A stretch of DNA of 57,402 bases from the IMG/VR virus record IMGVR_UViG_3300045744_000033, positions 1-57,402 of that record; one strand, given 5' to 3'. This document shows positions 19,076-21,890 of the stretch, piece by piece. Source of the stretch: a virus. Taxonomy: Duplodnaviria; Caudoviricetes. The notes under the pieces are model-generated. The model had not been told where the DNA came from, made no database searches, and was given only the letters and a program-made list of their open reading frames with translations. How positions within the stretch are numbered: position 1 is the first letter of the stretch; each line of letters begins with the position of its first letter. The position numbers and the translations under genes were made by a program.

Positions 19076-20203
19076 TCAGGGCTCGGTCTGAAGGGCCCGG
19101 TCGATGGCGTCTACCGCTTCCCACGCGACCTCCGGCGCCACGTGCTGGTAGATGCGCAGCGTGGTCGTGATGTCGGCGTGGCGGAGGATCTGCTGGCCGA
19201 CGCGGGGGTGGATGCCGGCCGCGGTCAGGAAGGAGGCCGCCGTATGCCGGGTGGCGTCATAGAGCTTGATCCGGGGCAGGCCTGCGGCGGCCACCAGGCG
19301 GTGGAAGCGGTAGCGGAACTTGTCGAGCGTGAGGGGTTCCCCGTGCGCGTCCATGAAGACGAGATCGCCCCGGCGCTTGCGGCCGGCGCGCAGCAGCTCG
19401 GCCGCCTGCCGGGCCTTGTGCGCGCGCAGCGCCTCGAGGACGATGCTGGGCAGGGGCAGCGTCGCCCGGCTCCCCGCCGTCTTGACCGGGCCCAGGGTGG
19501 GCGCTCGGCCCGGCTCGCGGACGAGCTGGCGCCGGATGGTGAGGTGGCCGGCCTCGAGGTCGATGTCTGACCAGCTGAGACCCAGCGTCTCCGAGGGGCG
19601 GAGCCCGAGGCCGATCCCGACCATGTAGGCCGCGCGCAGCGGCTCGTCCGCCAGGACCTGGATGAACCGGCGGGCCTCGGGCGCGGTCCAGAAGCCGGCC
19701 TCACGGCGCGGGACGCGCGGAGGCCGGGCGAGCGCGGCGACGTTGCGGCCGATCAGCTCCTCGCGCATGGCGTCGTTGAGCGCGTTCCGGAGGACCTCCC
19801 GGACCTGCTGCGCAGTCCGCGCGCCGGCGGAGCGCTGCTTGCGGTTGACCAGCTCCTGGACCTGGCCGACGCTCAGCTCGGCGAGCTTGATCGTCCCCAG
19901 GCTCGGGATCACGTGGCGTTCGAGCACGCCGCGGTACACGCGAACCGTCTTCGGCGCGTGGCGGCCCAGCTCCTCGAGGCCGGTCATCCACCGCTCCAGG
20001 TATGCGGCCAGCGATGGCGTCCTCGTCCGAACCGGGAGGCCCTTGCGACGACTCCGCACGAGCTCGGCGAGCCTGACCGCGACCTCGTCGCGGGTCTTCC
20101 CGTAGATCCACTTCCGGCCCTTGCCCGGACCGAGGCTCAGCGCGGCGGCCCAGCGCCCGTCCTTGCGCCTGACGACCGTGCCCTCGCCGCGACCGCGCGC
20201 CAT
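19076..20203 (-). CDS. int: Tyrosine integrase
   Basis: MARGRGEGTV...DGRW N-terminal arm-binding domain; GLRPSE, YDATRHT, LRHAD and IYQH catalytic motifs. Confidence 0.95.
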   Translation of the reverse strand: MARGRGEGTVVRRKDGRWAAALSLGPGKGRKWIYGKTRDEVAVRLAELVRSRRKGLPVRTRTPSLAAYLERWMTGLEELGRHAPKTVRVYRGVLERHVIPSLGTIKLAELSVGQVQELVNRKQRSAGARTAQQVREVLRNALNDAMREELIGRNVAALARPPRVPRREAGFWTAPEARRFIQVLADEPLRAAYMVGIGLGLRPSETLGLSWSDIDLEAGHLTIRRQLVREPGRAPTLGPVKTAGSRATLPLPSIVLEALRAHKARQAAELLRAGRKRRGDLVFMDAHGEPLTLDKFRYRFHRLVAAAGLPRIKLYDATRHTAASFLTAAGIHPRVGQQILRHADITTTLRIYQHVAPEVAWEAVDAIDRALQTEP

Positions 20204-20230
20204 GGCGGGCACGATTCTAGCCTCCGAGCG

Positions 20231-20249
20231 GTTGACAACGGTTGTCAAC
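20231..20249. promoter_or_regulatory. Perfect 9-1-9 palindrome, candidate operator
   Basis: GTTGACAAC-G-GTTGTCAAC between the divergent int and pro-peptide genes. Confidence 0.7.
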
Positions 20250-20327
20250 TGGATCGTCGGCGCGGTTGACAGAGCGCCTCGTCGGGCGAACACTGGCGGC
20301 ACTCACCGCTTCACCTGGAGGTGCGCC

Positions 20328-20432
20328 ATGCGCAAGATCCGTGTCCTCGCCCTCGCGCTCGGCCTCAGCGGCTTCGCGATCGTGATGTCGACCGCCGCGG
20401 TGTTCGCCGACGGCATCCCGGGCTTCCCCTAG
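20328..20432 (+). CDS. Putative secreted signalling pro-peptide (34 aa; predicted mature DGIPGFP)
   Basis: SD GGAGG; MRKIR + hydrophobic core + AVFA signal peptidase I site, then 7 residues; adjacent to an HTH-TPR gene. Confidence 0.8.
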   Translation: MRKIRVLALALGLSGFAIVMSTAAVFADGIPGFP

Positions 20433-20456
20433 GCCGCCCGCGCCAGATCTACAACT

Positions 20457-21890
20457 TTGGCCGACCCCGCAACACGGCGGGTACACTTGCCCGCCGTGCC
20501 GGAGTCGGTCGTCAAGCAACGACGTCGAGGAAAGGGGATCGAGGTTCACGCCCAGGCGGTGCGCCGTGCGAGGTTGGAGGCGGGGCTGAGCCTGGCCCAG
20601 GTCGTCGCCGGGACCGACATCAACCGCCAGACCGTCTACCTCGTCGAGCAGGGCCGGATGCGGCCGTCCCTCGAGGTGCTCCAGCAGATCGCGCGCCGCA
20701 CGGGCAAGCCGGTCACCTACTTCCTCGGTGAGCGAGTCGTCGACGCCGAGCCCACCGCGTCGATGCGGCGCATCCAGAGCGGGCTCACCCAACTCGAGCG
20801 CCACCTCCTGGTCCGAGACTTCGCCGCCGCTGTCGAGCTCGGCGAGCGCCTCTTGCAGAGCGCGGTCGACAGCGCGTCGGAGGCCTCGGTCCGCGTCGCG
20901 CTCGGCCAGGCGCTGGACATGCTGCGCCGGCCCGAGGACGCCCTCCCCCATCTCGAGCGCGCGCTCGAGCTCGCCGAAGGCCTGAGCGATCCGTGGGGCG
21001 CCATCGACGCGCTGGACTGGATCGGGATGGCGCAGTACCTGCTCGACGAGCCGAAGGCCCTGGCAACGCTGACCGACGCGCTCGAGCGCTGCCGCAAGCT
21101 GCAGCCGGTCTTCGCGCCGTCGCTGGTCCGGATCCTGTCTCACATCGGGACGGTCCACATCTCGCGTCACGCGATGCGGGCGGCGATCCGAGCCTTCGAG
21201 GAGGCGGCTGCCGCCGCCGAGACAGTCCGCGACATCGCCCAGCTGGCCAGGATGTACGACAACCTGAGCCAGGCCTACTCGCAGCTGCTGCAGCCGGCCA
21301 AGGCCCTCGCGCTCGCCAACAAGGCGCTCCACTACTACGAGATGGAGCGCGACCTGGCTGGCGTCTACCGCGCCGAGAACAACCTCGGCGACCTCCTGCT
21401 GCGGGACGGCGACCTCGCCGCCGCCGAGAAGCACCTGGCGCGCGCGCTGCGCGGCTTCTCGGAGCTCGGCGTTGACCGCCGCGGCCGCGGATACGTGCTG
21501 GTCAACATCGGGGAGCTCGCGCTGCGGCGGGGCGACCTCGATGCCGCCGAGGAGGTCCTCACCGAGGCGCTGACACTCGGGACATCGATCGGCGAGCGCG
21601 TCGTCCAGGCCAATGCTCACGCCTGGCTCGCCGTGGCCCATGAGCGCCGGGGCGCACCCGGGCGCGCCGACCGCGAGTTCCTGGCGGCGATCGCCATCCT
21701 CGCCGAGCTCGAGATGCCGGACCGGCTGAGGGAGGCGCACCTCGCCTACGGACGGATGCTGAAGACGCGAGGCGACCTCGCCCGCGCGATCGAGCACATC
21801 GAGGAGGCGGCCGCCCTGACGCAGCACGTGAGCTTCGACCTGCCTGCTCGCATCGACGAGCCCCTGGTCTCGGACTCGGCGGCCGTCTAG
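20457..21890 (+). CDS. XRE-HTH plus TPR-repeat regulator (RRNPP-like peptide receptor); start may be GTG 20496
   Basis: ARLEAGLSLAQV...VEQGRMRPSLEVLQQIARR HTH followed by multiple TPR-like repeats (YDNLSQAY, ENNLGDLL, LVNIGELA). Confidence 0.85.
   Translation: MADPATRRVHLPAVPESVVKQRRRGKGIEVHAQAVRRARLEAGLSLAQVVAGTDINRQTVYLVEQGRMRPSLEVLQQIARRTGKPVTYFLGERVVDAEPTASMRRIQSGLTQLERHLLVRDFAAAVELGERLLQSAVDSASEASVRVALGQALDMLRRPEDALPHLERALELAEGLSDPWGAIDALDWIGMAQYLLDEPKALATLTDALERCRKLQPVFAPSLVRILSHIGTVHISRHAMRAAIRAFEEAAAAAETVRDIAQLARMYDNLSQAYSQLLQPAKALALANKALHYYEMERDLAGVYRAENNLGDLLLRDGDLAAAEKHLARALRGFSELGVDRRGRGYVLVNIGELALRRGDLDAAEEVLTEALTLGTSIGERVVQANAHAWLAVAHERRGAPGRADREFLAAIAILAELEMPDRLREAHLAYGRMLKTRGDLARAIEHIEEAAALTQHVSFDLPARIDEPLVSDSAAV

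Follow-up and report, generated by a model that had tools for sequence, protein, structure and literature searches.

A candidate peptide-signalling cassette in the lysogeny region of a GC-rich temperate phage, with chromosomal relatives in Candidatus Dormibacterota

The viral record IMGVR_UViG_3300045744_000033 (Duplodnaviria; Caudoviricetes), a stretch of 57,402 nucleotides analysed at its full length and called the window here, carries a two-gene cassette between its integrase gene and a group of repressor-like genes. The first gene encodes a 34-residue pro-peptide resembling a secreted precursor, and the second a regulator that combines a helix-turn-helix (HTH) domain with tetratricopeptide repeats (TPRs). 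We think that the pair is probably one phage-borne example of a large family of two-gene cassettes for peptide signalling in Candidatus Dormibacterota, with a peptide tail of its own. Comparison with relatives strongly supports reading the pair as RRNPP-like; secretion, re-import and density-dependent control are its putative functions. A previous interpretation of this DNA, made from its letters alone and referred to here as the sequence-only reading, had proposed an arbitrium- or RRNPP-like module at this place. The RRNPP-type architecture of a pro-peptide followed by an HTH-TPR receptor holds up, as the pair is conserved and has co-diversified in relatives and the receptor has a suitable fold; membership of the AimR family falls away, as no sequence relation was found. 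The term 'arbitrium-like' is best taken to describe a presumed logic rather than a family membership.

The pro-peptide and receptor genes

The pro-peptide gene occupies positions 20328..20432 of the plus strand and consists of 34 codons and a TAG stop, with the ATG at 20328-20330 and the TAG at 20430-20432. Its product is MRKIRVLALALGLSGFAIVMSTAAVFADGIPGFP. The open reading frame (ORF) exists as the sequence-only reading had claimed, one base off the position implied there, and the strong Shine-Dalgarno (SD) sequence that had been noted upstream is confirmed as GGAGG at 20317..20321 on the plus strand, 6 nt before the ATG. The product also fits the signal peptide that had been proposed, as judged by manual rules and a hydropathy window: a basic n-region, MRKIR, is followed by a 20-residue hydrophobic stretch (best 12-residue Kyte-Doolittle mean 2.23) and by V-F-A at positions -3 to -1. 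The predicted mature heptapeptide, DGIPGFP, fits an A-x-A site that is conserved among the precursors described below.

Directly downstream, at 20457..21890 on the plus strand, lies the gene for the candidate peptide receptor, an HTH_3 and TPR regulator of 477 residues when read from the TTG at 20457. Alternative starts are found at TTG 20487 and GTG 20496, and relatives favour one of these two, on the basis of the alignment, the start of the nearest relative (L081) and a 467-residue database call. Pfam places HTH_3 at residues 35-89 (E 4e-9, above the curated cut-off), and several TPR families match the receptor, TPR_12 with an E-value of 1e-26, which agrees with the XRE-HTH and TPR protein expected behind the small ORF. 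No signal peptide or membrane segment is apparent, and the receptor is predicted to be cytoplasmic, with a TPR-type helical repeat as its sensor part.

Pairing and co-diversification in chromosomal relatives

A protein search with the receptor gave 154 matches at 35-50% identity, the named ones belonging to Candidatus Dormibacteraeota or 'Chloroflexi' metagenome-assembled genomes (MAGs); the closest database relatives, P0002 and P0003, share 50% identity with it. A one-genome-per-species scan yielded 85 confirmed receptor loci, of which 80 were kept, and a metagenome scan added locus L081. Dropped before counting were L053, L059 and L062, in which the match begins after the HTH, and L082 and L083, with weak matches to the TPR part only. 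Upstream ORFs were called by an automated rule that asks for the same strand, a start codon, a basic residue, a 12-residue stretch with a hydropathy of at least 1.9 and no more than 25 residues after it. By this rule a signal-peptide-like ORF lies upstream of 70 of the 80 receptor homologues, nearly all of them in Candidatus Dormibacterota MAGs. The sequence-only reading had named beforehand, as the result that would speak against it, homologous receptors without an adjacent pro-peptide ORF; the pairing is kept. Among the ten misses, L078 lies at a contig end, L081 is cut by a contig end, L044 is preceded by a similar ORF that is longer, and seven have none.

The 70 peptide ORFs encode 24-36 residues (median 31); ATG is the start codon of 60, and an SD-like motif accompanies 58. 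When aligned, the precursors share a start of M-R-K, about 20 hydrophobic residues, an (A/V/P)-x-A site with Ala at -1 in at least 90%, and a tail of 5-10 residues. In L081 the first 24 bases encode DGIPPFP and a stop, 45 nt before the receptor ATG, to be compared with the phage tail DGIPGFP. A quick IQ-TREE of 81 receptors relates these tails to the receptors that follow them. In one receptor clade (support 100), all 36 rows carry an [IV]GPT tail, a type found in 0 of the 35 other peptide-bearing rows. Further clades are marked by the tails ..CCYS (7 rows), ..WCC (3), ..(S/P)GW (4), ..WPPGT (2), STGPxx (3) and AFPPCC (2). The phage receptor and L081 form a clade with a support of 99 that is sister (support 97) to the IGPTP clade, and the tail type DGIP(G/P)FP appears to be a clade character too. 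The IGPTP residues are written in 31 loci with three to four different codons per position, and this synonymous variety therefore indicates selection on the peptide and not on the DNA.

The family is large. A receptor is found at E <= 1e-40 in 152 of 301 genomes of the class, often with two to five in each; these counts are lower bounds, from a scan in which five candidates were scored per genome and which read 8 unpublished genomes among the others. One MAG holds four cassettes with four different tails (L054, L063, L076 and L080). In the surroundings of the 80 host loci, nothing but the pair itself is conserved: the largest cluster of neighbouring genes spans 18 loci, and the 10 of 14 clusters that were annotated, by one representative each, include ABC transporters, two-component systems, cytochrome bd oxidase and similar functions. 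The phage tail type, searched as DGIP[G/P]FP followed by a stop, occurs in 0 of 374 genomes of the class, which fits a private channel.

Several loci of this family have peculiarities of their own. L067, L069 and L071 form a small receptor clade; these three, like L050, L060, L068 and L073, have neither a peptide ORF nor the palindrome described below, and they may be orphans or have their peptide gene elsewhere. Paralogous receptors stand side by side or back to back at G429:C9:15849-19026, G581:C85:4460-7665 and G421:C21:9111-12410, an arrangement that suggests local duplication of the cassette. In-frame TAG codons interrupt three receptor homologues (G429:C9:17695-19026, G609:C115:2323-3645 and G544:C159:2399-3484), which points to pseudogenes or assembly errors. 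Ten records (L002, L005, L011, L030, L040, L054, L063, L069, L076 and L080) are labelled Nitrosopolaris, Eisenbacteria, Baltobacterales, Bacillota or Terriglobales and nest among Dormibacterota, which looks like an error of binning or labelling rather than transfer.

Receptor fold

The AlphaFold2 model of the receptor, made with 28 relatives, has a predicted local distance difference test (pLDDT) score of 87 and consists of an HTH at residues 32-89 and 18 helices at residues 101-459. In an all-against-all comparison with VIA-align, the top row is phi105 Rap bound to its peptide (8rte), with a Z score of 30.2 and a root-mean-square deviation of 3.4 over 337 aligned residues. LGN (30.1), RapI (4i1a, 29.2), pLS20 Rap (6t3h, 25.9) and NprR-NprX (4gpk, 25.7) also rank high, and lower down are phAimR (5zvv, Z 22.3, rank 17) and PlcR-PapR (18.8). 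Rap and NprR chains overall reach Z scores of 25-30 over 300-348 aligned residues. A profile search of PDB sequences also finds Rap chains (6t3h, E 6e-12; RapF, 7e-9), and generic TPR proteins score better. The modelled fold is as expected of an RRNPP receptor of the Rap/NprR branch, and it fits TPR superhelices in general equally well. We class the receptor as one that would work like RRNPP proteins, with which it may or may not share descent. A complex prediction of receptor residues 95-462 with the 34-residue precursor scored 0.18 (mark 0.32), which speaks neither for nor against binding.

A candidate operator and a proposed mechanism

The intergenic region between the integrase gene and the pro-peptide gene holds a 19-bp perfect palindrome, GTTGACAAC-G-GTTGTCAAC, at 20231..20249, which we regard as the candidate operator of the receptor. 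The int start codon is 28 nt away on one side, the -35 element of a candidate peptide promoter follows after 14 nt on the other, and the 57.4-kb genome contains no second palindrome of this type (0 expected in shuffles). The candidate promoter of the peptide-receptor operon, at 20266..20294 on the plus strand, was read by eye as TTGACA, 17 nt and AACACT, with a weak -10; a second GGTTGACA at 20264-20271 supplies its -35, 17 nt from AACACT. A consensus scan of 19900-23300 for promoters and terminators listed nothing, the candidate peptide promoter included. The arrangement is shared with the IGPTP clade, in which the upstream region reads TGAGTTGACA, 4-6 bases and (T)GTCAACTCA about 60-65 nt before the ATG, and in which the left TTGACA is followed by 17 nt, GACACT, then GGAGGTG and the ATG. 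Across the family, the DNA ahead of the peptide ORFs shows a striking similarity: an exact TTGAC/GTCAA inverted repeat within 130 nt upstream of the peptide ORF is present at 42 of 70 loci, versus 0 of 3286 control windows taken from these loci. In the CCYS clade, the recognition helix reads SRTAIFL (versus SRTAIHL) along with half-sites of TTAACA/TGTTAA, a joint change that would fit, in a qualitative way, a receptor binding these sites.

The surrounding genes define a lysis-lysogeny region. A tyrosine integrase gene (19076..20203, minus strand; Pfam Phage_integrase E 5e-20, with Phage_int_SAM_3 and Phage_int_M) is divergent from the peptide gene. On the other side, an 88-residue HTH gene (21887..22153, minus strand; HTH_31 E 1.3e-4) is convergent with the receptor gene, and it is followed by a 157-residue HTH gene that is a CI-like candidate (22243..22716, minus strand; HTH_31 E 0.002, below the curated cut-off, and GC3 (third codon position) frame analysis) and by an 83-residue HTH gene that is a Cro-like candidate (22781..23032, plus strand; weak Sigma70_r4_2 and HTH_31), the first in a rightward early operon. 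The placement of the pair between the integrase and a CI/Cro-like switch, as given in the sequence-only reading, is thus borne out by int upstream and the repressor-like HTH genes downstream. The stop codons of the receptor gene and the convergent 88-residue HTH gene overlap in a CTAG at 21887-21890, and the transcripts of the two units must therefore overlap.

These elements can be assembled into a sequence of putative events. First, Sec would export the 34-residue precursor, and a cut after V-F-A would release DGIPGFP. Second, the peptide would build up outside infected or lysogenic cells and enter through oligopeptide permeases of the host; the SBP_bac_5 family is present in all five host-lineage genomes examined, with 3-8 copies each. 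Third, the peptide would dock on the concave face of the TPR superhelix of the receptor, and docking would alter the occupancy by the HTH of the one palindromic operator in the int/peptide intergenic region. Occupancy of the operator would in turn determine how int, on one side, and the peptide-receptor operon, on the other, are transcribed. With no room for a terminator, the operon would run antisense into the two repressor-like HTH genes beyond it. In this way a private signal may bias integration, lysogeny or induction.

A second copy of the tail on a lysis-cassette membrane protein

The C-terminal end of the pro-peptide is written a second time in the phage genome. A lysis-cassette gene at 16422..16871 on the plus strand encodes a 149-residue membrane protein with three hydrophobic segments and a basic 32-residue C-terminal tail, whose last eight residues, ADGIPGFP, and stop codon (16845-16871) equal the end of the pro-peptide gene (20406-20432). 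The two stretches are identical at 25 of 27 nt, both differences are synonymous, and shuffles give 0 such cases by chance. The sole homologue among 5.8 billion proteins, P0123, is 71% identical and keeps ADGIPGFP, and the eight residues that precede it, a linker, differ. No homologue occurs in the 374 genomes of the class, the protein matches no PHROG or Pfam family, no holin family included, and its ESM Atlas matches are all below 0.8. The label 'holin' for this protein rests on its position and hydrophobic segments only.

This duplication suggests that the signal or the receptor of the phage is also coupled to lysis by way of this late membrane protein. It is conceivable, although we would not count on it, that the signal is written twice, as a Sec pro-peptide and as the end of a membrane protein, and that both are read by one TPR receptor. 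Two versions of this idea fit the evidence. In the first, lysis would free the signal, membrane fragments would be trimmed outside the cell, and the peptide level would count lysed rather than infected cells. In the second, the receptor would hold the cytoplasmic tail of the membrane protein until imported peptide displaces it, amounting to peptide-controlled timing of lysis, which can be likened to lysis inhibition in T4 but would be driven by a diffusible signal. Either version, if true, would be an undescribed link between phage communication and the lysis machinery.

The same evidence bears on a stricter alternative, in which the true ligand is the cytoplasmic ADGIPGFP tail of the membrane protein, the receptor works like an antiholin or a tether, re-imported peptide competes with the tail, and lysis time rather than integration is tuned. 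The shared eight residues and stop speak for this account, as does the retention of the residues in P0123 behind a different linker. The three hydrophobic segments and basic tail also fit an N-out, C-in topology, predicted by the positive-inside rule, and TPR domains can bind free C-termini, as TPR co-chaperones do with the EEVD ends of Hsp70 and Hsp90. We nevertheless hold it to be unlikely. In the chromosomal cassettes, IGPTP followed by a stop is found only at the pro-peptide gene (5 of 5 genomes); as there is no second copy, lysis timing cannot be the basic mode of the family. Moreover, the receptor has an HTH and a unique candidate operator beside int, and no holin family matches the membrane protein.

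The phage genome, its host and the question of host-directed cargo

The record is a complete temperate phage genome that was opened within the structural genes, since it encodes tail, terminase, portal, replication, excisionase-like and integrase genes. It is a single contig of 57,402 bases that makes up the whole record, has a GC content of 69.6% and is classed as a virus record. A direct overlap of 22 nt is common to both ends (1-22 and 57381-57402), which makes the contig a circular assembly of a complete genome. Pfam identifies a tail tube protein (Phage_tube_2) and a tape-measure protein (PhageMin_Tail); a replication initiator is encoded, the large terminase lies at 50439-51881 (phrog_2, E 3e-37), and the endolysin match is weak (phrog_291). 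An excisionase-like HTH gene is found at 17734..18018 on the minus strand (phrog_1840 and phrog_66 at E about 1e-4; HTH_17). A 1066-residue ORF at 51897-55097 has PHROG matches to portal (residues 90-586), NUDIX (637-778) and minor-head/MuF-like proteins (about 950-1065). In the early region, a 633-residue ORF at 34459-36360 has a weak large-terminase match (phrog_2666, E 6e-9) besides the real terminase. ARAGORN reports a 72-nt tRNA-Leu with anticodon TAG at 18072-18143; a bacterial tRNA-Leu, with its long variable arm, should be longer. Assembled contigs stop exactly at 18554, inside the att region, in two of four sequencing runs compared, and this break may reflect a mixture of integrated and free forms, or chance. 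The contigs matched from sequencing runs give neither an integration nor an expression signal.

The relatives of the receptor, the closest terminase and the GC content point to a host in the class of the chromosomal cassettes. The GC content of the phage compares with a median of 67.3% in the 80 loci, and terminase relatives occur in 4 of 401 genomes, the best of them (G178, 57% identity) in an unpublished genome of the same class. A tblastn search of the receptor against 50,697 phage records returned only a 63-residue HTH match in an unrelated virus.

Given such a host, the cassette might be a captured host regulator carried as an accessory gene, which would act on host genes or host peptide signalling and not on a phage decision, in the manner of phage Rap-Phr cassettes in Bacillus. 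The receptor does nest in the chromosomal family of the host, as sister to the IGPTP clade, host genomes carry two to five paralogous cassettes, and sites beside int often hold accessory genes. This account nonetheless seems to us improbable, for three reasons. First, the sole matching palindrome of the phage lies in the int/peptide intergenic region. Second, the absence of the phage tail type from the sampled genomes of the class argues against direct cross-talk with the sampled chromosomal systems. Third, the tail has been copied onto a phage lysis protein.

Weighing the evidence

A number of results weigh against a phage-encoded peptide signal of the RRNPP kind, or against parts of it. With respect to the receptor, none of the 13 Pfam families that it matches is specific to RRNPP proteins. 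The generic TPR protein LGN ties with Rap in VIA-align (Z 30.1 versus 30.2), and Foldseek places LGN/Pins first and the Rap of phage phi3T only 44th; as generic TPR proteins match equally well, the fold does not single out RRNPP. The comparison of the receptor with PlcR, NprR and AimR envisaged in the sequence-only reading therefore stands as a likeness to Rap and NprR, and fails as an exclusive one. With respect to the operator, the exact-match test misses 28 of 70 loci, many of which have variants, and we infer that the receptor is the palindrome-binding protein, as the most economical candidate, because only the peptide and receptor genes are conserved around the palindromes. With respect to the peptide, the seven receptors listed above have no upstream peptide ORF, and SBP_bac_5 is nearly universal, being found in 11 of 14 control genomes as well. 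With respect to the phage and its host, the att region (18040-19080), searched in 5 and then in 301 genomes, gave only tRNA-like matches at 80-87% identity; the receptor is found in none of the four genomes with terminase relatives, the closest (G178) included; and two scans of viral contigs contained no receptor relative.

The 20-residue hydrophobic stretch of the precursor is also long enough for a membrane anchor and could be one. This is the starting point of an account without any signalling, in which the small ORF either encodes a micro-protein of the membrane or has a regulatory role as an upstream ORF, and the HTH-TPR protein is an ordinary phage regulator whose TPR domain binds another protein. 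TPR domains have many kinds of partners, as the lead of generic TPR proteins in the Foldseek list recalls. We give this account very little credence. It does not explain why the pairing is kept in so many relatives, nor the clade-specific short tails under purifying selection with a conserved A-x-A before them, and an upstream ORF acting through translation alone would not keep its last five residues through synonymous change. A phage-borne member of the Dormibacterota family of signalling cassettes is the explanation that we retain.

Relation to known systems

Peptide systems of this kind are typical of Bacillota, according to the consulted part of PMC10075063, and the text searched of PMC9765709 and PMC12700828 contains nothing on other phyla; candidate peptide systems of human-associated bacteria include non-Firmicutes, as given in the consulted part of 10.1101/2024.08.13.607696. 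A literature search in the main text of papers found none on such systems in Dormibacterota, Chloroflexota or their phages. In the searched literature, peptide communication through cytoplasmic TPR receptors, including the lysogeny choice of phages, is described only for Bacillota and their mobile elements. What appears to be the same logic is now seen in a phage of an uncultured GC-rich soil lineage, in which the receptor family is present in about half of the genomes. If true, phage-to-phage signalling would not be a Bacillus speciality, and a major soil lineage known only from metagenomes would have a rich peptide language, the code of which, in the form of 5-10 residue Gly/Pro-rich tails behind a signal-peptidase site, would be readable from sequence. 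In vitro work without cultivation of the host is within reach, given the small size of the receptor, the 7-residue peptide and the 19-bp operator.

Among characterized systems, NprR-NprX of the Bacillus cereus group, an RRNPP member, shares several features with the phage pair. An XRE-type HTH at the N-terminus and about nine TPR-like repeats are joined in a single polypeptide, the small gene next to it encodes a Sec-type pro-peptide, and the structural match spans the whole TPR part (4gpk, Z 25.7, 337 aligned). The differences are an identity of about 10% in the structural alignment, a peptide gene that here comes first, a tail directly behind the signal-peptidase site with no pro-region for extracellular proteases, and an occurrence in Dormibacterota and one of its phages rather than in Bacillota. 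The Rap-Phr systems of Bacillus phages and plasmids (phi105, phi3T, pLS20) give the best structural matches, are likewise carried by mobile elements and likewise have several orthogonal paralogues per host genome. Rap, however, has no HTH and acts by protein binding, whereas the phage receptor has HTH_3 and a candidate operator. The order of the genes differs too, with phr placed behind rap.

The Rgg-SHP, ComR-ComS and PrgX-PrgQ systems of streptococci and enterococci have precursors of about 20-35 residues with a basic N-terminus, a hydrophobic stretch and the active peptide at the C-terminal end, and an inverted-repeat operator at the promoter of the peptide gene; the phage precursor and operator resemble both. 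Peptides of the Rgg/ComR/PrgX type are exported by PptAB and cleaved by Eep, with the hydrophobic stretch serving as the signal. In contrast, the phage precursor has a classical A-x-A site and then a Gly/Pro-rich tail. Rgg-type repeat domains are not among the structural matches listed, from which their exclusion does not follow.

Arbitrium, the logic of which is described for Bacillus phages in the consulted portions of PMC9232636 and PMC8612738, has a comparable setting. In SPbeta-like Bacillus phages, as here, a temperate phage carries in its lysogeny region an HTH-TPR receptor and a short peptide, here a predicted secreted one, together with a single operator in the phage genome, here a candidate one, and presumably a private signal for each phage type. 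The phage pair differs from arbitrium in several ways. No AimR-bearing phage was matched at E <= 1e-3 in the tblastn search of 50,697 phage records, and phAimR, with a Z score of 22.3, ranks below Rap, NprR and unrelated TPR proteins. As the sequence-only reading had pointed out, the gene order differs from aimR-aimP-aimX: the peptide gene precedes the receptor gene, the gene after that is convergent, and nothing resembling aimX was identified. The candidate operator is located at the promoter region of int, and close relatives of the receptor are encoded on chromosomes of the host lineage.

The phage pair belongs to one family with these chromosomal Dormibacterota cassettes, having the same gene order, the same precursor plan of MRK, hydrophobic stretch, A-x-A and tail, and the same type of HTH-TPR receptor. 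The phage copy is set apart from them by its location between int and the immunity genes, by a tail of its own and by the duplication of this tail on a membrane protein.

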